Below, one piece after another: positions 1,303 to 15,964 of a DNA stretch of 16,300 nucleotides. The stretch is from the UHGV virus genome UHGV-1567883. One strand, given 5' to 3'. Every line of letters begins with the position of its first letter. The stretch's first letter is position 1. The position numbers were made by a program, and so were the translations under genes. The DNA is from a virus. The notes under the pieces are model-generated. The model saw nothing but the letters and a program-made list of their open reading frames with translations. It made no database searches and was not told where the DNA came from.

Positions 1303-1521
1303 TTACTGGCAGCGTCTGAATTTATTCCCGTTATCCTTCGCCAGACCCGCCAGAACTAACTGAGTCAGTATTAACTGGCACCGGGCTTCGCTTACTCCGG
1401 TAGTTCTCGTCATCATGCGTGGCGTTACCCACTTGTCAGCAGGTAAGAAATGAAGGACTGCGGCGGCGGTTTCTGTCATATCTTGCTGTTTTAGCATGTC
1501 TTTTTCCCTTCTGGTTAACAT
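1303..1521 (-). CDS. Small hypothetical phage protein, possibly winged-helix; real start may be the internal ATG at 1497
   Basis: 72 aa ORF; the internal Met9 is preceded by AAGGGA at SD distance. First gene after the candidate late promoter/terminator. No recognisable catalytic motif. Confidence 0.4.
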   Translation of the reverse strand: MLTRREKDMLKQQDMTETAAAVLHFLPADKWVTPRMMTRTTGVSEARCQLILTQLVLAGLAKDNGNKFRRCQ

Positions 1522-1619
1522 GACATACCAATAACTCTTGTCTAAAAAGCCAGCAAGATAAAAGGTCAGTATTCACGACCACCAGCGTGTTTACTGTACT
1601 GCACCAAGTTTACAGGTAC

Positions 1620-1640
1620 AAAAAAACCGCTCAGCGGCGG
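1620..1640 (-). terminator. Candidate minus-strand intrinsic terminator (possible tR'-like)
   Basis: Minus strand reads CCGC-tga-GCGG followed by seven U (plus-strand A-run 1620-1626). The stem is short, so this is marginal. Confidence 0.3.
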
Positions 1641-1674
1641 GTTTAAGTTGTGTGGCGAAGTAACCACTCTTAAC

Positions 1675-1702
1675 AGCATATTTGATTTTTTACGATTGTA
1701 AA
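1675..1702 (-). promoter_or_regulatory. Candidate sigma70 promoter on the minus strand (possible late PR'-like)
   Basis: Minus strand TTTACA (1702..1697), 16-nt spacer, TATGCT (1680..1675); would start a roughly 50-nt transcript ending at the 1620-1640 hairpin. Confidence 0.25.
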
Positions 1703-1767
1703 CGGTTGATTATTCATCTCCAATAAAAATAATTGTGTAGGTATGCCCTTAACAATGGATAAGAAAC

Positions 1768-2214
1768 ATGAATAAAATGACTGTACTATTACTTAGCGCA
1801 ACTATCATTTCAGGTTGTACTTCTTCCGTACCATTGATAAAAAAAACTCAATCAGGAAAACCTGAGGGGGTTTATCAAAATACGACAAAAGATAAAGTCA
1901 AAGATGCCCTTGTGAATTACTGCAATAGTAGAGGGTTGATAATTTACAACGCTGATAACAGCAGTGTTATATGTGGTAAAGAACTGGAAGGCGGGTCTGC
2001 TGTTTTTGGACAAATGTTAATCGGCAATGCCTATTCAACAACCCCGGTATCAAAAGTCAGATTTACTATCGCTCAAGTTAATAACGATACAAAAGTGTGG
2101 GCCGATATGTGGATGGAAACTCAAATGGCAATGGGGCAAGTACAACAAATGGCTATAACAGACAACGCAAGCAAAAACACTATCCAACAACGTCTTGATG
2201 AATTAAAACCTTAA
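1768..2214 (+). CDS. Lipoprotein (signal peptide plus lipobox), AT-rich moron
   Basis: 148 aa; N-terminal MNKMTVLLLSATIISGC with lipobox ISGC; the gene is visibly AT-rich relative to its neighbours and convergent with Q. Confidence 0.7.
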   Translation: MNKMTVLLLSATIISGCTSSVPLIKKTQSGKPEGVYQNTTKDKVKDALVNYCNSRGLIIYNADNSSVICGKELEGGSAVFGQMLIGNAYSTTPVSKVRFTIAQVNNDTKVWADMWMETQMAMGQVQQMAITDNASKNTIQQRLDELKP

Positions 2215-2234
2215 GTAAATTAATTAAATAAAAT

Positions 2235-2256
2235 GGGGAGAATAAATCGACTCCCC
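2235..2256. terminator. Hairpin terminator between the convergent Q and lipoprotein genes
   Basis: GGGGAG-aataaatcga-CTCCCC with an A/T-rich tract on the 2221-2234 side (U-run for the minus-strand transcript). Confidence 0.5.
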
Positions 2257-2298
2257 ACACATTAAACTGATTCAATTACCCCCTCAATAAGAGGTCTT

Positions 2299-2664
2299 CT
2301 AACGATCCATCTCTAGCTCAATTTCTAACATCATTAACATGCCATCAACTACACCTTCAGCCTTTTGCAATAAACGCCCAACCCAGCAATCAGAACGCCC
2401 ATGTTTACGGGCAAGCGCCATAAACGTCATACCACCTACATAATAATCCACTAATAAATCGTGCAAATCGCTGTTGTTCTTTTTCAGGCGAGCCATGCAC
2501 CCACAAATGATCATCGCATCATCGTCACAACATTGCGGGCGGGATTTTACTTTTGAAGGGATTAGTCCTTTAAATCCTGCAGCAATAGACGACCAGGTGA
2601 CATCCTCGTGATTATTTGCCACCCATGCCCCCCAACGTTCAAGAACCATTTGAATATCACGCAT
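2299..2664 (-). CDS. Antitermination protein Q (phage 82 / QuuD-like family)
   Basis: Protein [14 protein letters not shown]...[19 protein letters not shown] matches my recollection of E. coli DLP12 QuuD. The ORF track starts at a TTG at 2679; the ATG at 2664 has GGAGAA 5-6 nt upstream. Confidence 0.75.
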
Positions 2665-4507: not shown

Positions 4508-4897
4508 TCAGGCGGCTGCACCCGCCGGTTTCTCATACTTACTGATAGTGATCTCGACCTTCCCTTTCGGGATAACCGGTCCCCACTCCACCAGCATTCT
4601 TTTCACCTGTCTGTCGTCTTCCCACACACCCGCGTGGGTCAGGGCGTCAAACAGCGCCTTGTTATAGTTGTCCAGATCGCGGATCCGGTTATCCGGAGGA
4701 AACAACACGATCTCCACTGAAGCAGGTGCCGACGTTGGTTTCGGCAGACGACGTAACTGCTCAACTATTGCTGCGCACGCCGCGCTCTGAAATTTTCGCC
4801 CCGCCTCGCTTATCAGGCTCTTACCAGCAAATGCCCCTTTGTTGGGGTGTCGCCAGTACGTGTTCACACTGGGCGGGAAAGGCAGGATCAACTTCAT
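4508..4897 (-). CDS. rusA: Holliday-junction resolvase RusA
   Basis: 129 aa; LPFPPSVNTYWRH ... RDLDNYNKALFDALT ... DD.QV matches RusA signature residues. Start overlaps the upstream stop (ATGA). Confidence 0.85.
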   Translation of the reverse strand: MKLILPFPPSVNTYWRHPNKGAFAGKSLISEAGRKFQSAACAAIVEQLRRLPKPTSAPASVEIVLFPPDNRIRDLDNYNKALFDALTHAGVWEDDRQVKRMLVEWGPVIPKGKVEITISKYEKPAGAAA

Positions 4898-5220
4898 ACT
4901 TTCAGGCCCCTCTCATGTAACCAGTGGGCTGCACGCAGCCTGGCGTTCTCCTCACCGGCAAGCAGTGCGCGGATGATACCGACCGCTTCGCTGTCGTCGT
5001 CCTTCACTGCGGTATGAAGCGTTATCCCCCGGGCCACGCCACGCTTTATCGTGATGACGCCTTTTTTCTCCAGTGCGCGAAGATGCTCCACCGCTGCATT
5101 CACCGAACGGTATCCCAGCATGGTTGCCACCTCCTGATTGGTTGGCGGAAAGCCACGCTCTTGCTGGTAAGAAATCAGCATATCCAGCACCTGCTGCTGG
5201 CATTGAGTTAACGTCGTCAT
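4894..5220 (-). CDS. LexA N-terminal DNA-binding-domain homologue lacking the S24 peptidase domain
   Basis: 108 aa; LTQCQQQVLDMLISYQQERGFPPTNQEVATMLGYRSVNAAVEHLRALEKKGVITIKRGVARGITL aligns motif-for-motif with the LexA winged-helix domain. No Ser/Lys catalytic domain. Translationally coupled (ATGA) to dam upstream and rusA downstream. Confidence 0.7.
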   Translation of the reverse strand: MTTLTQCQQQVLDMLISYQQERGFPPTNQEVATMLGYRSVNAAVEHLRALEKKGVITIKRGVARGITLHTAVKDDDSEAVGIIRALLAGEENARLRAAHWLHERGLKV

Positions 5221-7913: not shown

Positions 7914-8111
7914 TTATGCCGCAGCACTGTTAGTCTTTTGATATAAAGACACGTCAACTTTCAGTTTCCCGTTAGTAATTTTTTCTAACTGGTACGCTCG
8001 GCCTTCAGGAATAATCTCAGGCCACTCTGAAACAGACGGATGCTTAATACCTAGGGCTTCGGCGGTTTTACAAACTCCGCCGAAATAATTAATCACGTCG
8101 GATTTCCGCAT
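7914..8111 (-). CDS. Cro-like repressor (YdaS/Cro family)
   Basis: 65 aa, divergent from the cI-like gene; GGGAGA SD upstream of the ATG; first gene of the minus-strand operon from the PR-like promoter. Confidence 0.7.
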   Translation of the reverse strand: MRKSDVINYFGGVCKTAEALGIKHPSVSEWPEIIPEGRAYQLEKITNGKLKVDVSLYQKTNSAAA

Positions 8112-8142: not shown

Positions 8143-8208
8143 AATGTAGGATATCCAACATGCCAATGTCAAGAATCCTACATTGGCATGTGGTAGGATT
8201 GCCTACAT
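8143..8208. promoter_or_regulatory. OR-like region: three 18-bp operator repeats plus PR-like promoter
   Basis: ATGTAGGATATCCAACAT 8144-8161; degenerate site 8166-8183 with perfect right half ATCCTACAT; TGGTAGGATTGCCTACAT 8191-8208. Minus-strand TTGACA (8172..8167), 18-nt spacer, TACATT (8148..8143) reading toward cro. Confidence 0.6.
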
Positions 8209-8860
8209 GATGAACATGAGTGATCGTATTCGCCAAAGGCGAAAAGAACTGAACCTGACACAACAAGCACTGGCTGATTTGACTGGTGTGAACCGTGTCA
8301 CGGTTACTGGATGGGAAAAGGACGACTACCAACCAAATGGAGCCAACCTTCAAGCCCTAGCCAACGCACTTAAATGCGATCCTCTGTGGCTTGTTAGCGG
8401 AAAAGGCTCGCCTGAACCAAAGATAAATCTAAAACCTGAAATATTCGCAGTTAAAAAAGTCCCCCTCATCTCGTGGGTTCAGGCGGGTTCATGGACAATG
8501 ACGGAGCCTGGTGTCAGGAAAGAAGATGCTGAAGAGTGGGTTTATACTACCGCCCTTGTATCAGAAATGGCATTTGCACTACGGGTCCGTGGTGATTCAA
8601 TGACCAATCCCCTCGGCTCACCATCGATACCAGAAGGTTCTATCGTTATCGTAGAGCCAGATATTATTGATACAGAGTGTATTAACGGAAAAATCGTTGT
8701 TGCCCATATCAATGGTGGGCAAGAAGCGACACTCAAAAAATTTGTTGAGGACTGGCCGAACAGGTATCTCGTCCCACTAAATCCTAACTATAAAACTATT
8801 GAATGCGGTGAGAACTGCAGAATAGTTGGTCTTGTCAAACAAGTAATAATGGATTTTTGA
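8207..8860 (+). CDS. CI-like prophage repressor (HTH_XRE N-terminus, S24 LexA-like autopeptidase C-terminus)
   Basis: HTH LNLTQQALADLTGVNRVTVTGWE; Ala-Gly cleavage site in VQAGSW; catalytic Ser in GDSM and Lys in ATLKK. The track start at 8183 is probably too long; ATGs at 8207/8210/8216 follow AGGA. Confidence 0.85.
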   Translation: MMNMSDRIRQRRKELNLTQQALADLTGVNRVTVTGWEKDDYQPNGANLQALANALKCDPLWLVSGKGSPEPKINLKPEIFAVKKVPLISWVQAGSWTMTEPGVRKEDAEEWVYTTALVSEMAFALRVRGDSMTNPLGSPSIPEGSIVIVEPDIIDTECINGKIVVAHINGGQEATLKKFVEDWPNRYLVPLNPNYKTIECGENCRIVGLVKQVIMDF

Positions 8861-8884
8861 CACATCTTCCTTACTATCGCAAAA

Positions 8885-8907
8885 CCGGGGTATCCCCGGT
8901 TTTTTTA
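8885..8907 (+). terminator. Intrinsic terminator after the cI-like gene
   Basis: CCGGGG-tat-CCCCGG followed by an 8-T run. Confidence 0.75.
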
Positions 8908-8922
8908 TGAGCCTATCTTTTT

Positions 8923-8976
8923 ATGTAGGATAACCAACATAAACTCTTGACACCTACATGTTGGATATCCTACATT
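8923..8976. promoter_or_regulatory. OL-like region: two operator repeats plus PL-like promoter
   Basis: ATGTAGGATAACCAACAT 8923-8940 and ATGTTGGATATCCTACAT 8958-8975 (exact reverse complement of the OR site at 8144-8161). Plus-strand TTGACA 8947-8952, 18-nt spacer, TACATT 8971-8976. Confidence 0.6.
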
Positions 8977-9134
8977 TGTTTTTAGAGTTGTGGTGAATGC
9001 GCAGGCTGATGCGCGAAAGACATTGCAGCTATTGCGGAAAAGAGCTGTTCGGCGGGGCAATTAAACGCCCGTGAGAGTCTGAAATAACCGCAAGCCGGAG
9101 ATCAGCACCGGTCACCACAACAGCCACTGCTTTG

Positions 9135-9269
9135 GCGGTACCAGTTTGTACACTTGCTTCCGGCTGGTACCGCTCTTTTTACAAAACAGAGAAGAGCATC
9201 ACCGGACGACGGGCTCATAACCCAATCCATCCGGGCGGCTGCCACCGCAGGTGTTCTTCTCTGTTTTGT
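9135..9269 (+). promoter_or_regulatory. Structured leader of the early-left operon: terminator-like hairpin plus a long-range 15-bp inverted repeat
   Basis: GCGGTACCAG (9135-9144) / CTGGTACCGC (9164-9173) followed by a T-run 9176-9180; ACAAAACAGAGAAGA (9181-9195) pairs with TCTTCTCTGTTTTGT (9255-9269). Confidence 0.35.
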
Positions 9270-9317
9270 GGAGAAACTAACCGACCTTGCAGGGTCGATA
9301 TGATGAGGAGCAGCAAA

Positions 9318-9680
9318 ATGGCTAGCGAACGCAGTACTGATGTGCAGGCATTTATCGGGGAGCTGGACGGCGGCGTATTTGAAACCAAAATCGGCGCAGT
9401 TCTCAGTGAAGTCGCTTCCGGTGTGATGAACACGAAAACCAAAGGTAAGGTCTCACTCAATCTGGAAATCGAACCGTTTGATGAGAACCGAGTGAAAATC
9501 AAACACAAACTCTCATATGTTCGCCCGACTAACCGCGGGAAAATTTCCGAAGAAGACACCACCGAAACGCCGATGTATGTCAATCGCGGTGGTCGCCTGA
9601 CTATTCTGCAGGAAGACCAGGGACAATTACTGACTCTTGCCGGTGAACCTGACGGAAAACTCCGCGCAGCAGGTCGTTAA
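9318..9680 (+). CDS. YfdP-like hypothetical phage protein
   Basis: The 120-aa version starts at the ATG at 9318 preceded by GAGGAG; the longer track ORF from 9132 lacks an SD. Gene order and sizes match CPS-53 yfdP/Q/R/S (recollection). Confidence 0.55.
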   Translation: MASERSTDVQAFIGELDGGVFETKIGAVLSEVASGVMNTKTKGKVSLNLEIEPFDENRVKIKHKLSYVRPTNRGKISEEDTTETPMYVNRGGRLTILQEDQGQLLTLAGEPDGKLRAAGR

Positions 9681-11858: not shown

Positions 11859-12065
11859 ATGCTGAACCTCGATTGCGTTCCAATCTCAACTTATTGCAAA
11901 GAAACTGGCGAAACTCCTGAAGCAATAAACAAACGTGTACAGCGCGGTGTTTGGCGTGAAGGTGTTCAGGTTTTAAAGGTTGAAGGCGTTAAGGAGAGGT
12001 GGATTGATCTTAGTGAGGTTGCAAAATGGGCCAGACAAAACTGCTCAAACTACCGCGCGGCGTAA
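11859..12065 (+). CDS. xis: Excisionase (Xis-like winged helix)
   Basis: 68 aa from the ATG at 11859 (GTGGAGA SD); directly upstream of and overlapping int by 40 nt, as in lambda xis-int. Confidence 0.6.
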   Translation: MLNLDCVPISTYCKETGETPEAINKRVQRGVWREGVQVLKVEGVKERWIDLSEVAKWARQNCSNYRAA

Positions 12066-13192
12066 CAATCAGGAAACACCGCCAGGGCGAAACGATCAAT
12101 ATAACTTTCACCTACAAAGGAGTTAAATGTCGTGAGCCTCTTTCCAATCTGGAAGTAACACCAAAGAACATTAAATACGCCGAGCGCACACTCGGCGAAA
12201 TTCATAATAAGATCGAAAGGGGAACATTCATTTATGCGGAATATTTTCCCCGTTCTGCTCGTTTGAAAATTTTTGGTAATGCTGCTGCAGGCAAAACGGT
12301 AAAAATGTACCTGGACGAATACCTTGAAATCTGCGAAACGAGAAAACTTTCACCCTCTACGATTGGTGGTTATAAAAAATGCCGTAGTGCGTTAGCCTCA
12401 CTCCACATTTGCCCTGCAAGTGAATTAACACCAGCAATCCTGAAAGCGTGGATTCAAAGCCAGAAAACGACCTTAAAAACAATTCGCAACCAGTTATCTT
12501 TCCTGCGGTCAGCACTTGATGAAGCCGTAACCGATGGGGTACTTCAAATTAACCCCGTATCGTTGGTAACTGCTTCGCGCTACCAAAGTGATAAGTCAGA
12601 AGCAGAAAGCAGCTACGTGGTTGATCCGCTATCACCAGCAGAAGTTGATGCATTACTAACAGCAGCCGGAAACAAACAATGGGAGAATCTGTTCCGGTTC
12701 GCTATACATACAGGCCTGCGTAGTTCTGAATTATGTGCCCTTCGATGGCGTGATATCGACTTTGTTGGAAAAACTGCCCATGTCCAGAGCGCAAGTGTTG
12801 TCGGTGTTATCAAAGGAACAAAGACAAAAGCCGGTACTCGTAAAGTTGAACTGACAGAAGATGCAATGTTGGCGCTGATAAATCAGAAGCCATTTACATT
12901 CATGAAGGATGCTACTGTCTTTGAAGATCCAAAGACCAATAAGCCCTGGGCAAGTGCTGATGCAATCAGGAAAAAAGCATGGGTGCCAACATTGCGAAAA
13001 GCAGGTATTCGTTACAGAAATCCATATCAAACCAGGCATACATTCGCCACCCGCCATATCAGCCGGGGAGCAAACCTGTTTTGGCTTGCAGCTCAAATGG
13101 GGCATAAAGGGCCGGAGATGCTTTTCAGGCACTATGGCTCATATCTGAAGGAATATGATGGACAAACAAGCTTGAAGAAGATAACAATATAA
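12026..13192 (+). CDS. int: Tyrosine integrase (lambda Int family with N-terminal arm-binding domain)
   Basis: 388 aa; catalytic R in TGLRSSEL, H/R in QTRHTFATRH, Tyr in LFRHYGSY; GAGG SD 7 nt upstream. Confidence 0.9.
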   Translation: MGQTKLLKLPRGVTIRKHRQGETINITFTYKGVKCREPLSNLEVTPKNIKYAERTLGEIHNKIERGTFIYAEYFPRSARLKIFGNAAAGKTVKMYLDEYLEICETRKLSPSTIGGYKKCRSALASLHICPASELTPAILKAWIQSQKTTLKTIRNQLSFLRSALDEAVTDGVLQINPVSLVTASRYQSDKSEAESSYVVDPLSPAEVDALLTAAGNKQWENLFRFAIHTGLRSSELCALRWRDIDFVGKTAHVQSASVVGVIKGTKTKAGTRKVELTEDAMLALINQKPFTFMKDATVFEDPKTNKPWASADAIRKKAWVPTLRKAGIRYRNPYQTRHTFATRHISRGANLFWLAAQMGHKGPEMLFRHYGSYLKEYDGQTSLKKITI

Positions 13193-13250
13193 TCCAAGCA
13201 TGAAACTATTGGCCACAATTTGTGGCCATTTTACGGAGCAAGATAGAAAC

Positions 13251-14984
13251 ATGGCAAATCAAATTACCAAACTAAAAAATATAAATGTTGTGAAGTTTCG
13301 CGGACTGAAAAATATAAACATCGAGTTTGGTTCTCGCCTAACTGTTATTTGTGGTAAAAATGGCACATCTAAATCCACAATTCTTGGCATTATCGCCCAA
13401 ATATTTAGCTTTACAAAGGACTTTACCAAAAACCCTGAGACTGATTTAACACAATATAAAACATTAACAAATGGCAGCTTCAAGTCAGCTTTCAGCGAAC
13501 ATTTTAGGCTTTCAGAACAATTTGATGTTCCTGGTTCAATGGACGTCAAAATTAGTGTCTATGATGGTGCATCGAACAAACATCTTGAAAAACTAACATT
13601 AGGTTTATACAGCTACAGTGACAGAGATAAATCTAGGCCTGTAGTCAGGGGAAATGATTCAATACCGGAAAAAAACCAAAGTAGAAACGTTACTCATCCT
13701 GTTATTTTTTTAAGCTTAGCACGACTTCTTCCTATTACATTAAGGACTGATTACTCAACACGGGATGTTCAGTACATCAATGAAAATTCTGATGAAATCA
13801 GAATGATGAGTAACCAACTCTTACTAAAAAACAATGGAAGCTCAGTAACAGCAACAAAAGGTACTATCGATTCAATGGTTGTCCATGGTGACAATTATGA
13901 TCACCAATCAGTATCTGTTGGTGAAGATAATGTTGGACAATTAATCCAGGCAATTTTTTCATTTAAAAGATTGAAGGAAACTTATTCTGATTATCATGGC
14001 GGAATATTGTTAATTGATGAAGCCGATGCAGGTCTTTTCCCTGCGGCACAGTTAGAGCTAATTAATATTCTAACTAAAGCAGCAAAACAATACGATCTGC
14101 AAATAATCATGACCTCGCACTCTCCATTAATAATAGAGGATATCTATAATCGTTCAAAACAAGATAGTGATAGCTTTAAAACAATATATCTTACAGACAC
14201 ATATGGAGATATTAAAACAAAGAATAATCTTTCATGGACAGATATCCACGCTGATTTACATGTTGAAACTGTAAAAATTAATGATGACATTTGTCTTCCA
14301 AAGGCAAATGTATATTTTGAAGACAAAGAAGGTTTCGACTTTTTCAAACAATTGATAACAGATCGAAAAATAAATAAAATATTAAATCCATTAGGAAATA
14401 TAAATATTAGCTGCTCTGCCATGCTTGACTTAATGGCAAGAAAAATACCAGAATTTACAGCTAAAAGCTTGATCGTCTTAGACGGTGATGTTGTTCACGA
14501 CAACAGTGCTAATGCAAAAAAAGCCAAAAAAGAAAAAAACTTATGTTTGCTTCCAAGCACCTTACCTCCAGACCAAATGATTTTTGAGTTTTTATATAAT
14601 TTACCACCTGATGATGCATATTGGGAAAATAAAAATAAATTTACAAAAGCTGTTTTTATGAAAACAGCTAAAGACATAATTGCAACGCTAAAGATTGGTA
14701 ACGCTCCGATTGATTTAAAAATCCTTATAGATAATTATAAAAAAGTTAACAAAAACCATGGAGGGAGAGTTAGAAAACTGTTTAAAGATTTTGCACATAC
14801 GACTCAATTTCAGGCCCAAGTCAAAGGAAGAGTTAAAGATAACCCATATCGATATTGGGTCGAGAAAAATCCTGTTCAATCGGATAGCTTCAAGAATGAA
14901 CTAATAAAGAGTCTTAAAGTTATTATGATAAGTGGACATGGTGTCGATTCTGCTACCATCTCATCATATCTGTCAGATAACTAA
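13251..14984 (+). CDS. OLD-family-like nuclease candidate: N-terminal ABC-type ATPase plus C-terminal TOPRIM-like domain
   Basis: Walker A CGKNGTSKST (nt 13350-13379), Walker B/D-loop ILLIDEAD (14014-14028), H-loop TSHSP (14112-14126), TOPRIM-like EGFD (14328-14339) and LIVLDGD (DxD at 14481-14489). The gene is visibly AT-rich. Alternative start at 13200. Confidence 0.7.
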   Translation: MANQITKLKNINVVKFRGLKNINIEFGSRLTVICGKNGTSKSTILGIIAQIFSFTKDFTKNPETDLTQYKTLTNGSFKSAFSEHFRLSEQFDVPGSMDVKISVYDGASNKHLEKLTLGLYSYSDRDKSRPVVRGNDSIPEKNQSRNVTHPVIFLSLARLLPITLRTDYSTRDVQYINENSDEIRMMSNQLLLKNNGSSVTATKGTIDSMVVHGDNYDHQSVSVGEDNVGQLIQAIFSFKRLKETYSDYHGGILLIDEADAGLFPAAQLELINILTKAAKQYDLQIIMTSHSPLIIEDIYNRSKQDSDSFKTIYLTDTYGDIKTKNNLSWTDIHADLHVETVKINDDICLPKANVYFEDKEGFDFFKQLITDRKINKILNPLGNINISCSAMLDLMARKIPEFTAKSLIVLDGDVVHDNSANAKKAKKEKNLCLLPSTLPPDQMIFEFLYNLPPDDAYWENKNKFTKAVFMKTAKDIIATLKIGNAPIDLKILIDNYKKVNKNHGGRVRKLFKDFAHTTQFQAQVKGRVKDNPYRYWVEKNPVQSDSFKNELIKSLKVIMISGHGVDSATISSYLSDN

Positions 14985-15064: not shown

Positions 15065-15964
15065 ATGCGTTTTAACACCCCACTTCGCTATCCTGGCGGT
15101 AAAGGCAAGCTTGCAAATTTCATGCTTCGGATTATTGAAGAAAATAATCTTTCGCCTATACATTATGCCGAACCATATGCTGGGGGTGCTGGTTTAGCAT
15201 TGAAACTGTTACATCTAAATGCAGCTGAAAAAATCATCCTTAATGATATTAATATTTCTGTTTATGCTTTTTGGCACAGTGTATTAAATCATGCAGATCA
15301 ATTATGTTCTTTAATTGAAAGAACAGAAGTTACAATGGATGAATGGTTTAGGCAGAAAGATATAATTAATAATCCTAAAGACCATGATCTTTTAACAATT
15401 GGTTTCTCAACCTTTTTTCTCAATAGAACAAATCGTTCTGGAATATTAAAAGGTGGAGTAATTGGCGGTAAAAATCAAGAAGGGAAATGGAAGCTTGACG
15501 CTCGCTATAATAAGAGTGATTTGATTTCTCGAATCCATAAAATATCAGAAAATCGTCACAGAATAGATTTATATAACATGGATGCAATTGATTTCATTAA
15601 AAAAATAGTTACTCAATTGCCACAAAACTCATTAACATATTTGGATCCACCTTATTACATAAAAGGTAAAGGTTTATATATCAACCATTATGATCATGAT
15701 GATCATGTTAGGGTTGCAAAAGTCGTACAGAATAATATTAAAACACCTTGGATTGTTTCTTACGATAACACTCCTGAGATCCAAGCTATGTATAAGACAT
15801 CATCATTAGTATATGGAATAAACTACAGTGCTCAAGATCGGTACAAAGGATCTGAGGTAATGTTCTTCAGTGAACGATTGAAAATCTTTAAAACAGATGA
15901 TCCAACTAAGGTAAAAGCGCCTGTATTTAAAAGAGGATGTGTTGACGACCACATCCAGACATAA
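15065..15964 (+). CDS. Dam-family (D12 class) DNA N6-adenine methyltransferase
   Basis: 299 aa; aligns by motif to E. coli Dam: PGGK near the N-terminus, SAM motif EPYAGGAG, NRTNRSG region, catalytic DPPY. AT-rich. Confidence 0.85.
   Translation: MRFNTPLRYPGGKGKLANFMLRIIEENNLSPIHYAEPYAGGAGLALKLLHLNAAEKIILNDINISVYAFWHSVLNHADQLCSLIERTEVTMDEWFRQKDIINNPKDHDLLTIGFSTFFLNRTNRSGILKGGVIGGKNQEGKWKLDARYNKSDLISRIHKISENRHRIDLYNMDAIDFIKKIVTQLPQNSLTYLDPPYYIKGKGLYINHYDHDDHVRVAKVVQNNIKTPWIVSYDNTPEIQAMYKTSSLVYGINYSAQDRYKGSEVMFFSERLKIFKTDDPTKVKAPVFKRGCVDDHIQT

Follow-up and report, generated by a model that had tools for sequence, protein, structure and literature searches.

In phage lambda, the early-left operon is headed by the N leader, a structured RNA that includes a duplex of RNase III size, and the 6S RNA made between PR' and tR' is a short promoter-to-terminator transcript of about 194 nt. 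DicF, from the dicB operon of prophage Qin, is a small RNA located inside a repressor-controlled prophage early operon; it is processed by RNase III and RNase E, and its 3' ends arise both from termination and from RNase III cleavage. The lambdoid phages HK022 and HK639 lack N and carry just downstream of PL a non-coding RNA, put, of about 70 nt with two stem-loops; put RNAs suppress terminators in cis, with dependence on the beta' zinc-binding domain. Closest to the locus described here is sRNA-17 of Escherichia coli K1 RS218, a 193-nt RNA mapped by RACE, verified by Northern blot and located in an mEp460-like prophage upstream of yfdP, which has been presented as an ArcA-regulated, trans-acting regulator of virulence (Front Microbiol 2020, PMC7719688). 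STnc100 and its relative PasD, the latter found by Hfq RIL-seq, are likewise prophage small RNAs (PMC13192938).

We analyzed the leader of the early-left operon in the virus genome UHGV-1567883; the whole stretch of 16,300 nt is referred to below as the window. As the preliminary description had proposed, a PL-like promoter precedes the leader on the plus strand: the sigma-70 promoter at 8947-8976 reads TTGACA-18-TACATT, agrees with the consensus at 10 of 12 positions and mirrors PR (8172-8143). It is bracketed by two 18-bp palindromic operators, each an inverted repeat (8923-8940 and 8958-8975), and a third copy lies on the mirror-image PR (8144-8161); the operator scan gave five matches where 0.01 would be expected. 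The gene for an S24-type repressor (8183-8860) is located upstream, and 8947-8976 is a CI-controlled PL that shares its operator with PR. Transcription is predicted to start at about 8983-8986. The first gene with a Shine-Dalgarno sequence begins where it had been placed, with GAGGAG at 9305-9310 and the ATG at 9318-9320. This gene (9318-9680, plus strand) encodes a 120-aa homolog of YfdP, is annotated as yfdP in E. coli genomes, and opens the operon yfdP-yfdQ-yfdR...xis-int.

The leader of about 340 nt between PL and yfdP consists of four modules, designated A, B, C, and D. It had been viewed as one structured element lacking an N gene; all of the features listed for it are present in the sequence at their coordinates, and both the structure and the lack of N hold, but the leader is not a single unit, being instead a mosaic of RNA modules that are exchanged separately. 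Folding of the complete leader gave z-scores of -6.4 and -6.75, with none of 100 and none of 200 shuffled sequences folding as well; the first 194 nt alone (A and B) are not unusually stable (z = -1.68). We consider it moderately likely that the leader comprises a PL-driven small RNA, a terminator by which the operon is attenuated, and behind these a conserved 5'-UTR structure, and that it contains no antitermination site.

Module A, the linker behind it and module B (8986-9179, plus strand) together form a homolog of sRNA-17. All ten published sRNA-17 oligonucleotides (full-length, RACE, Northern, and deletion) match the window exactly; those for 5' RACE and Northern detection are antisense to the plus strand and those for 3' RACE are sense, and together they define a plus-strand RNA running from 8986/8987 to 9179. 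Compared with sRNA-17-carrying phages, the window shows 98-100% identity, mEp460 matching at 99.4% from 8984 onward. A small RNA was one of the options raised at the outset, and the RS218 data support it, the RNA, its strand, its ends and its terminator being the same as those of A and B. The existence, strand and ends of the ~193-nt RNA have been shown in this near-identical homolog and would be expected to hold for the copy in the window. The promoter region differs in RS218, whereas the copy described here is driven by an operator-flanked PL of another immunity type. The sRNA-17 paper, whose supplement includes substitution variants of module A, notes neither a terminator or attenuator role, nor an RNA family, nor module C (PMC7719688).

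Module B (9134-9180, plus strand) is the intrinsic terminator. The terminator-like hairpin noted previously, with arms at 9135-9144 and 9164-9173 that are complementary at 10 of 10 positions and followed by C and TTTTT (9176-9180), is part of a 13-bp stem, G.U pairs included (9134-9146 with 9162-9174). The 15-nt loop is outside the 3-8 nt usual for terminators, which is why B is not listed by a standard terminator scan. Relatives keep a GC-rich hairpin and a U-run at this position with compensating changes in the arms (GGUACC/GGUACC, GGCGCC/GGCGCC, GGCGUC/GACGCC, GGCAUC/GAUGCC), and this covariation establishes the structure. In the near-identical RS218 homolog, the published 3' RACE end of sRNA-17 corresponds to 9179, within the U-run of B. 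This end supports the attenuator that had been proposed as another option, and suggests that B attenuates the operon in the phage of the window. A deletion in RS218 equivalent to 9012-9129 raised yfdP read counts about 95-fold, and those of yfdR also increased (PMC7719688). The effect of the deletion is consistent with action in cis on the operon; the ~95-fold rise could also reflect polarity caused by the resistance cassette, and it does not prove attenuation.

Module A (8987-9121, plus strand; 135-136 nt) is a three-way junction. Its helices are P1 (8987-8995 with 9113-9121), P2 (8999-9003 with 9010-9014, loop GGCUGA at 9004-9009), and P3 (9095-9098 with 9108-9111, loop AGAUCAGCA at 9099-9107), and its middle domain (9016-9094) is variable. 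All three helices covary. Among 58 distinct sequences, the pair types in P1 are UA32/GC18, GC37/AU8/UA8, UA46/GC7/CG3, and GC53/AU5, and those in P3 are CG52/AU3/UA1; a scan anchored on the 3' side recovered compensatory variants of P2 (GCGUA/UACGC, GCGAA/UUCGC, GCCCG/CGGGC, GCACA/UGUGC) in which the loop is kept. Pairing in the module amounts to 84.7%, compared to 25-45% in slid controls, and the observed score was reached by none of 500 shuffles. The P2 and P3 loops are complementary (GCUGA with UCAGC) and in the modeled fold may form kissing loops.

The module A family is widespread: its members come from over 140 phage records, over 120 viral contigs, and 30 species genomes, and about 50 nt of it are near-invariant across proteobacterial classes. 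The combination of A and B is already published as sRNA-17 (PMC7719688). The module A family is absent from Rfam 15, and a full-text literature search for the invariant sequences found no paper. A strict intrinsic terminator follows within 150 nt in 20 of 66 distinct family members. In HK620, module A lies in the interval between qut and the late terminator tQ, which it precedes by about 55 nt; a search of the window's own late leader downstream of Q (1480-2310, minus strand) found no A- or C-like modules. Larger A-containing RNAs, in HK620 and the Klebsiella phages 6991 and Magnus, carry an ORF resembling a tmRNA tag (ANEEMYLAVA, then a stop). We considered and rejected a tmRNA for the leader: the Rfam tmRNA matches of these larger RNAs are weak (E 0.04-0.5), ARAGORN made no call on them, and the tag-ORF part is absent from the window.

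A scan of the window against Rfam 15 at gathering scores returned no matches, and at E-value thresholds the intervals 8800-9500 and 8960-9190 gave chance-level matches only (Guanidine-I, rydB, and others). One chance-level match, Termite-leu, falls on the cI terminator. Modules A and B of the window match neither STnc100 (RF02076) nor DicF, even at E <= 10. The corresponding alleles of e14 and ST64B give full-length alignments to STnc100 at 29.2 and 35.1 bits, below its gathering score of 47 bits. STnc100 has an architecture in common with A and B: a closing helix of the form ...GGUGAAU / CACCA..., a hairpin immediately after GGUGAAU, a CCGG-loop-CCGG hairpin just before CACC, and then a terminator; its consensus differs from the invariant P2 and P3 loops of A. 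Both STnc100 and PasD are prophage-borne and often located in Q or late-leader regions, as is module A in HK620. The Pas small RNAs were rejected as a match for the leader, being located in other prophage regions (PMC13192938). Against DicF (RF00039), B of e14 gives an alignment of 28.5 bits (E 2.5e-4), short of the gathering score of 48. The two resemble each other at the 3' end, which in DicF consists of GGCGGUAUCAG...CUGCCGCC and a U-run terminator, and like A and B, DicF belongs to a repressor-controlled early operon. DicF is 53 nt long and located mid-operon, and its ftsZ-pairing 5' region is absent here.

Module C (9181-9269, plus strand) corresponds to the long inverted repeat of the preliminary description, which is real and longer than the 15 bp claimed, with arms at 9181-9205 and 9245-9269. 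In the fold, 9181-9200 pairs with 9250-9269 (20 bp), and the stem extends to 25 bp when the U-run (9176-9180) pairs with GGAGA (9270-9274). Within it are an inner arm (9202-9206 with 9230-9234, 9208-9209 with 9226-9227, and 9211-9213 with 9221-9223) that ends in the loop CUCAUAA (9214-9220), and a side hairpin (9235-9238 with 9245-9248). Covariation again establishes the structure: across 25 distinct sequences, 96.6% of cells are paired, compared to 42-50% in slid controls, 10 pairs are changed on both sides, and the length of the stem is kept. A U.G pair present in 25 of 25 sequences points to an RNA of the plus strand. The apical 35 nt are almost invariant, unpaired bases included. The tip, CGGGCTCATAACCC (9210-9223), is identical at 14 of 14 positions to the initiator-tRNA anticodon stem-loop of E. 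coli (positions 28-41 of initiator tRNA-Met, a gene present in four copies), with its three G-C pairs and CUCAUAA loop, and is invariant in 22 of the 25 distinct relatives. The e14 copy has the loop UUAAUAA instead, and the CAU triplet is therefore not essential; the ST64B copy is also altered. Module C is not a tRNA: it has no D or T arms, a 20-bp stem takes the place of the acceptor stem, and in the window ARAGORN detected no tRNA or tmRNA genes and no Rfam tRNA model matched. Module D, the last of the four, is a GC hairpin (CGACCU/GGGUCG, 9282-9297, plus strand) just upstream of the yfdP ribosome-binding site; relatives have other GC hairpins at this position, and its minus strand is flagged as terminator-like.

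Among phages, A, the B+C cassette and the downstream genes are exchanged as separate modules. Many lambdoid prophages have the B+C cassette at the head of the early-left operon, with varying partners on either side; N-less lambdoid prophages with such leaders include mEp460, SfV, cdtI, Stx2c phages, e14, and ST64B. Parts of the leader region are found in 2892 of 5426 complete E. coli genomes. In e14, the cassette directly precedes xisE-intE and is annotated in K-12 as the protein "YmfH"; the K-12 ymfH gene is probably a mis-annotated non-coding cassette.

These features suggest how an attenuated leader would operate. The CI-repressed PL transcript would begin at about 8984-8986 and run straight into module A, with its two complementary hairpin loops, and about 55 nt past A the RNA polymerase would meet terminator B. 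Transcripts that stop at B (3' end at about 9179) would constitute the ~193-nt sRNA-17, and B would act as a constitutive attenuator or insulator, limiting the PL transcription that reaches yfdP-yfdQ-yfdR...xis-int. Read-through of B is presumably passive leakage and not factor-driven. In the read-through RNA, C would draw the U-run of the terminator into its 25-bp duplex, which is of a length that would suit RNase III, and its tip would present the copy of the initiator-tRNA anticodon arm, with hairpin D and the yfdP ribosome-binding site next in line. C may be processed or bound by a host factor, and the small RNA may have a target in trans.

Compatible with the attenuated leader, and in our view possible rather than probable, is that C serves mainly as an RNase III or processing site and as an element of mRNA stability. 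By analogy with the RNase III hairpin of the lambda N leader or the RNase III route of DicF, cleavage at C would detach the small RNA from the mRNA and would determine how stable the yfdP mRNA is and how well it is translated. Only the read-through RNA can form the near-perfect duplex of 20-25 bp that incorporates the U-run, the covarying stem conserves its length, and the resemblance of the e14 copy of B to the DicF terminator points the same way. The cleavage itself is a prediction, however, and a plain RNase III stem would have no need for 35 near-invariant apical nucleotides.

We think it rather unlikely that A and C act in trans on the host, as RNAs that normally accompany phage tRNA genes, with the PL leader merely providing early expression. 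Such RNAs could be decoys or inhibitors for tRNA-targeting defenses, or could bind factors of translation initiation or tRNA processing. Consistent with a host-directed function, prophages of Beta- and Gammaproteobacteria share an identical copy of the invariant block of A, and this block is the target of a CRISPR spacer. Moreover, tRNA genes of like orientation lie within 600 nt of A in 14 of the 66 distinct family members, the orientation of A always agreeing with that of the neighboring tRNA genes. These genes are frequently tRNA-Met (in other phages, genuine phage tRNA-Met genes are often located behind module A), and A sometimes encloses a tRNA-like insert. The core of C is found directly 3' of tRNA genes in Klebsiella late leaders, where an acceptor-like stem and then ACCA are present, and its tip copies the initiator-tRNA anticodon stem-loop at 14 of 14 positions. 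In an overexpression screen, a clone of e14 'ymfH' (A'+B+C) triggered the retron-Sen2 toxin, an effect that was attributed to a protein. The host partner is nevertheless hypothetical, the e14 loop indicates that CAU is dispensable, and C of classes 1 and 2 is always tied to a terminator and the head of an operon, suggesting a role in cis. The near-invariant unpaired bases and tRNA-like tip of C, together with the ~50 near-invariant nucleotides of A, suggest a specific partner, and the attenuated leader that we favor leaves both unaccounted for. With similar reserve, we raise the doubtful prospect that the leader holds members of two undescribed, widespread phage RNA families, A and C, that act in trans on conserved host machinery; candidate targets could include tRNA-targeting defense nucleases (VapC-type toxins), MetRS, initiation factors, and retron-type sensors.

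It is very unlikely that module A is a put-like RNA that acts in cis, replacing N by modifying RNA polymerase to pass B and later terminators. The put-like element suggested in the preliminary description was not borne out. A covariance model trained on six putL sequences recovered the untrained control, HK022 putR, at 36.6 bits (E 1e-8) and gave no match in 8977-9317 or in nine related leaders, the best match elsewhere having an E-value of 0.27; BLAST between put RNAs and the leader found no link in either direction. We reject the put hypothesis on these two results. In its placement, A does resemble HK022 putL, starting at about +3 of the PL transcript of an N-less phage. In addition, the yfdP-type leaders of ST64B, phiNP, and LLS hold several terminator-like hairpins, and put-like antitermination was a speculation of the authors who described phage LLS, in which a copy of C is present. 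However, the three-way junction of A is unlike the two stem-loops of put and has a different sequence, phiEt88 carries a genuine putL and module A at separate sites, A-carrying RNAs end at B, as in sRNA-17, and autonomous antitermination between qut and tQ in HK620 would bypass control by Q. A nut-type system was rejected as well, the boxA-like string being unconserved and the N gene absent. The boxA-like CGCUCUUUUUACAA (9171-9184) varies with the terminator arm in relatives and so is not a conserved boxA, and the leader lacks any 5-bp hairpin of boxB type capped by a GAAAA-type loop; compared to the lambda nutL/N leader, that of the window is thus without both N and boxB. The previous observation that no N-like ORF of plausible size is present was correct: leader ORFs are 24-49 aa long, the one exception being an upstream extension of the yfdP frame that starts at a TTG (9132) and is not conserved. 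N, an Arg-rich protein of about 100 aa, has no counterpart among the leader ORFs or, by Pfam, in either early operon. YmfJ, an upstream ORF in e14 and SfV, is not Arg-rich.

It is highly improbable that A functions at the DNA level, for example as a MITE bounded by 10-bp terminal inverted repeats or as a recombination or att site, or that the leader is a riboswitch-type attenuator with alternative structures. The inverted repeats at the ends of module A are perfect, its boundaries (8984/8987 and 9122) are mosaic, and its spread resembles that of a mobile element; its arms nonetheless covary rather than stay conserved, its G.U pairs are specific to one strand, and its orientation matches that of adjacent tRNA genes. 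As for a riboswitch, the alternative pairings of 9161-9177 with 9192-9208 and of 9038-9048 with 9169-9179 are short or 3' of the terminator and are not kept in relatives with other middle domains, and the window contains no Rfam riboswitch match.

The 25-codon Arg-rich ORF pointed out in the preliminary description (MRRLMRERH..., 8997-9074, plus strand) exists, but we judge it non-coding. Among 66 relatives its length varies between 7 and >60 codons, and only its first six codons are conserved, because the invariant RNA block fixes them; its ATG is 1 nt after GGUGA, within P1/P2. The ORF is a by-product of that block. That the region encodes a protein, whether this ORF, the YfdP extension from the TTG at 9132, a YmfH-like protein or a minus-strand 47-aa ORF that overlies the leader and is annotated in mEp460 and cdtI, can be dismissed as scarcely credible: such ORFs do exist, and depositors annotated mEp460 gp36, cdtI gp40, and K-12 ymfH over these sequences, but the 25-codon ORF is unconserved, loop lengths in C that differ by 6, 7, 8, 9, 14, and >27 nt break any reading frame, the B+C cassette is joined to varying downstream genes, substitutions in the RNA helices are compensatory, and the window does not keep the ymfH frame open.

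In a large group of N-less lambdoid prophages, the position of N is thus taken by a module of small RNA and terminator together with a conserved structured 5'-UTR. On this reading, sRNA-17, published as a virulence regulator, is what a prophage PL (or leader) transcript yields on termination, and it belongs to a broad family of phage RNAs; the strongest of its "targets", yfdP and yfdR, sit directly downstream in cis. If two RNA families do act in trans, the K-12 'YmfH' would be an RNA, and it would be an RNA that triggers the retron-Sen2 toxin. The copy of the initiator-tRNA anticodon arm and the RNA block shared across proteobacterial classes are now defined well enough for tests of host partners.

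The window carries the immunity and early region of a lambdoid prophage. On the minus strand lie Q (2299-2679), cro (7914-8111), a CII-like gene, replication genes, Dam and RusA; on the plus strand, an S24-type cI (8183-8860) ends at a terminator (8881-8903), and beyond the leader (8977-9317) come yfdP (9318-9680), yfdQ/DUF2303, an HD phosphatase, DUF551, small ORFs and an integrase (12026-13192). The leader is preceded by a promoter, TTGACA-18-TACATT (8947-8976), with a mirror image, PR, at 8172-8143. An 18-bp palindromic operator has three sites (8144-8161, 8923-8940 and 8958-8975), with five operator matches against 0.01 expected. Because of the mirror-image PR and the operator common to both, the promoter is the repressor-controlled PL, and the distance of about 340 nt to the first gene with a Shine-Dalgarno (SD) sequence (yfdP, ATG at 9318) is correct. 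Elsewhere in the prophage, a 594-aa AAA_15/AAA_21 (AbiEii/OLD-like) ATPase (13200-14984) and a D12-class adenine methyltransferase (15065-15964) are encoded just past the integrase, possibly as defence or moron cargo at the prophage end. A 108-aa protein of the early right operon (4894-5220, minus strand) is a LexA DNA-binding domain alone, without the S24 peptidase domain. The late leader, between Q and the lysis genes, contains an AT-rich ORF of 148 aa (1768-2214, plus strand) that runs against the late operon and looks like a moron; inspection of the late leader around it found no RNA module like A or C of the early-left leader.

The long structured leader without an N gene is a real feature. 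Its terminator-like hairpin (9135-9144 with 9164-9173) is complementary at 10 of 10 positions, or 13 bp with G.U pairs, followed by C and UUUUU (9176-9180). The arms of the long inverted repeat are 9181-9205 and 9245-9269. As a whole, the leader is far more stable than its shuffles (z -6.4 and -6.75), an excess owed mostly to the long hairpin; taken alone, the first 194 nt give z -1.68. BLAST against phage genomes revealed a mosaic with sharp joints between shared segments. The whole leader is common to Lys8385Vzw and two Stx2c phages, while sharing begins at 8984, exactly the transcription start, in mEp460, 1720a-02 and Stx2a phages, at 9113 in cdtI, 2H10 and most Stx2c phages, and at 9133 in SfV, SfII and SfIV. 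Klebsiella phage IME207 carries 8987-9122 alone (98.5% identity), and ST64B, phiNP, Kp4866-6 and LLS share the long hairpin only (~84% identity). Accordingly, we treat the leader as four modules: A, a three-way-junction RNA (8987-9121); B, an intrinsic terminator (9134-9180); C, a long stem (9181-9269, or 9176-9274 counting U-run pairing); and D, a small hairpin (9282-9297). Parts of 8984-9318 are found in 2892 of 5426 complete E. coli genomes, 585 of which have at least 80% of it. The PL-to-yfdP leaders of ST64B (L233 560-1340), phiNP (L234 470-1410) and LLS (L236 790-1368; all comparison loci in their own coordinates) are 600-950 nt of non-coding sequence, with several structured modules, including T-arm-like and extra terminator-like hairpins, 5' of the same B+C cassette.

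A full-text search on yfdP plus sRNA located a study of E. coli K1 RS218 in which sRNA-17, a 193-nt RNA from an mEp460-like prophage, was mapped by 5'/3' RACE and Northern blotting (PMC7719688). Its primer table maps exactly onto the window: the "full-length" primers span 8987-9018 and 9148-9179, the 3' RACE primers read in the plus-strand sense, and the Northern probe is complementary to that strand, as are all three 5' RACE primers. sRNA-17 is therefore the plus-strand transcript 8986/8987-9179, which begins at the PL start and stops in the U-run of hairpin B. The mapped end in this near-identical homologue is direct evidence of B functioning as a 3'-end-forming element. Deletion of sRNA-17, corresponding to window 9012-9129, up-regulated yfdP (~95-fold by read counts) and yfdR above all other genes, and both were treated as regulatory targets (PMC7719688). 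They are the genes immediately downstream of the leader, and we read their rise as a cis effect, caused by partial loss of the leader, by outward transcription from the inserted cassette, or by both.

Module A belongs to a large family and is a true structured RNA. More than 140 records from widely differing phages, including Klebsiella siphoviruses, 157-kb Klebsiella myoviruses, Aeromonas phages, Erwinia phiEt88, HK620, HK629 and CUS-3, contain both ends of the module at 93-100% identity, with a middle domain that ranges from ~40 to 180 nt. The 23-nt 5' block occurs in at least 120 contigs of an IMG/VR scan, and the exact 23-mer in 30 species-representative genomes (Janthinobacterium, Massilia, Achromobacter, Variovorax, Pandoraea, Serratia, Rahnella, Aeromonas and Pseudomonas among them). 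In 58 distinct sequences, compensatory change is abundant in the closing helix P1 (UA32/GC18, GC37/AU8/UA8, UA46/GC7/CG3, GC53/AU5), slightly biased by choosing its 3' partner partly by complementarity (at least 6 of 9), and is present in hairpin P3 (CG52/AU3/UA1/UG2). The observed values exceed those of all 500 shuffles, and pairing is 84.7% against 25-45% in slid controls. Since the first search pattern fixed hairpin P2, a second scan was anchored on the 3' side; it recovered the P2 variants GCGUA/UACGC, GCGAA/UUCGC, GCCCG/CGGGC, GCCGG/CCGGC and GCACA/UGUGC, with the loop GGCUGA kept. CAGY is always retained in the P3 loop and complements the P2 loop (GCUGA with UCAGC), pointing to a possible kissing contact between the two loops, both too nearly invariant for covariation to bear on it. 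In the window-type middle domain, one variant carries a compensatory change of CGGGGC...GCCCG to CAGGGC...GCCUG. An Rfam 15 search returned no family for module A. A strict intrinsic terminator follows within 150 nt in 20 of 66 distinct members, tRNA genes of the same orientation lie within 600 nt in 14 (often tRNA-Met just after), and one member encloses a predicted tRNA. AGUGCUCUUUCC precedes A in 17 of the 66 and pairs with an upstream GGUAAGAGCA in larger RNAs. In HK620, A is positioned between qut and the late terminator tQ.

The invariant 5' block (AGAAATTGGTGAATGCGCAGGCTGATGCGCGT) is also a CRISPR spacer, with repeat TCTCTTGGCCGCCTACGCGGCGGTGAAC, on a Candidatus Magnetaquicoccus inordinatus contig (L343, ~2335-2400); thus, a host targets this conserved phage RNA gene. 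In L009 (1215-1670), HK620 (L010, 1190-1600) and L011 (1200-1735), A is the 3' part of a ~400-500-nt non-coding RNA holding a tmRNA-tag-like frame, GCAAACGAAGAAATGTATCTGGCAGTAGCCTAA (ANEEMYLAVA*), with ...AUAAAU before it; these RNAs give sub-threshold Rfam tmRNA matches and no ARAGORN call. Two Janthinobacterium loci (L326, L329) have ARAGORN tRNA-like genes with 4-base anticodons, (aact) and (cact), ~130-160 nt downstream of A, candidates for aberrant or frameshift-suppressor-type tRNAs. In viral contigs L181, L200 and L156, A is followed in tandem by another, related module (GGUGAGAGC...GCUCUC, GUUGUGGUGA and a different interior), suggesting arrays of such RNAs. In the window, AAAAGAGCUGU (9038-9048, middle domain of A) is complementary at 10 of 11 positions to 9169-9179, the B 3' arm and U-tail; the pairing could mask the 3' U-tail of the small RNA, and is absent from relatives with other middle domains.

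The architecture of the leader matches known prophage small RNAs. The e14-type variant of A (A') plus B matches the Rfam STnc100 model from one end to the other (29.2 bits, E 1e-4; gathering 47, E-value thresholds used), ST64B scores 35.1 bits against the same model (gathering 47), and the e14 linker plus B scores 28.5 bits against DicF (gathering 48). A+B is laid out like the STnc100 consensus: ...GGUGAAU and a hairpin, ..., CCGGG-AGGCA-CCCGG and CACCA, then a terminator. Both STnc100 and PasD, a proposed relative identified by Hfq RIL-seq, are prophage small RNAs (PMC13192938). The window's own A+B matches neither STnc100 nor DicF, and we class it as a related variant, not a member.

In K-12 derivatives, the leader match is annotated "ymfH", in prophage e14 (L232 2363-2674). 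This 103-codon CDS, immediately 5' of xisE-intE, takes in B, a variant C and an A'-type module that shares P1 but differs in its interior; because the reading frame is closed in the window, ymfH very probably does not encode a protein. A clone of ymfH was reported to trigger the retron-Sen2 RcaT toxin (bioRxiv 10.1101/2020.06.22.160242), which may be an RNA effect. The 25-codon Arg-rich ORF of the preliminary description (from 8997) is present, and no N-sized ORF is. We reject the former as a gene: it lacks a usable SD, and its sequence and length diverge after codon 6 (7 to >60 codons among relatives). Its start falls inside the invariant block of A, so that MRRLMR is conserved for RNA reasons.

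The core of module C has three contexts among the matches listed. In class 1 (window-like), B is followed by C and the match ends near 9282 (GGAGAAACUAA), with yfdP, an ATGAAATTACC... gene or others downstream. In class 2 and in ST64B, phiNP, Kp4866-6 and LLS, C, with stem changes, follows other terminator hairpins, all GC-rich with a run of 5-7 U and compensating arms. In class 3, the Klebsiella late leaders downstream of Q, the core comes directly after tRNA-Arg, tRNA-Asn or other tRNA genes, closed by GGCCUG/CAGGCC and then ACCA or GCCA. Covariation bears out the stem: among class 1 and 2 members (25 distinct sequences), pairing holds in 96.6% of cells (slid controls, 42-50%) and 10 pairs change on both sides (e.g., AU14/CG8, GC18/CG6, AU23/GC2, AU12/GC5/GU5). 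A U.G pair occurs in 25 of 25 and G.U in 11; read from the opposite strand, these would be A.C mismatches, so selection acts on the plus-strand RNA. The apical 35 nt are almost invariant, bulged and looped bases included, and 9210-9223 (CGGGCUCAUAACCC) is identical to the anticodon stem-loop of the initiator tRNA-Met that E. coli encodes in four copies (tRNA sequence verified against all 5426 genomes). Despite this identity, C is not a tRNA (Rfam and ARAGORN negative). The loop is UUAAUAA in e14 and CUCAUUA in ST64B and Kp4866-6; the variants retain three G-C pairs and the loop geometry, and CAU is not strictly kept. In Pantoea phage PA-1 (L237 1195-1300), the core lies between GGUAAGGG and GUGCUCUUUCC, immediately 5' of a GUUGUGGUGA module, and hence C-type and A-type modules can belong to one RNA.

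Of the readings first offered, small RNA and attenuator are upheld by the mapped end of sRNA-17 at B. The most likely model, which we hold with reasonable but incomplete confidence, is that PL transcripts fold A and a fraction of them terminate at B, which would yield a 194-nt small RNA and thereby attenuate the operon. Read-through RNAs, which may arise by leakage at the large-loop terminator or through some factor, would carry C and D 5' of the yfdP ribosome-binding site. A role for C as an RNase III or processing and stability element is compatible with this model, and we propose it only tentatively. That A and C have trans-acting, tRNA-related host targets seems rather unlikely. A put-like antiterminator role for module A is not supported: RNAs containing it stop at B, and in HK620 it lies 5' of a Q-controlled terminator. 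A covariance model of six putL sites, which recovers the untrained control HK022 putR (36.6 bits, E 1e-8), finds nothing in the window leader or in the mEp460, SfV, cdtI, e14, ST64B, phiNP, Kp4866-6, LLS and HK620 loci. No phage carrying the window's leader belongs to the HK022 putL BLAST family (HK75, O276, UPF_BP1, phiEt88, CobraSix, S9-5, HK639), and phiEt88 has putL and module A at separate sites. Antitermination by nut/N is rejected likewise, as the N gene is absent and a boxA-like string in the B tail changes with the hairpin arm; in e14 and SfV, the cassette is preceded by an ORF of N size, YmfJ, which lacks an Arg-rich motif.

A simple attenuator model explains neither the extreme conservation of A nor why C mimics the initiator tRNA. 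As sRNA-17, half of the element has been published before; the breadth of the module A family and the tRNA-mimic hairpin appear to be undescribed.
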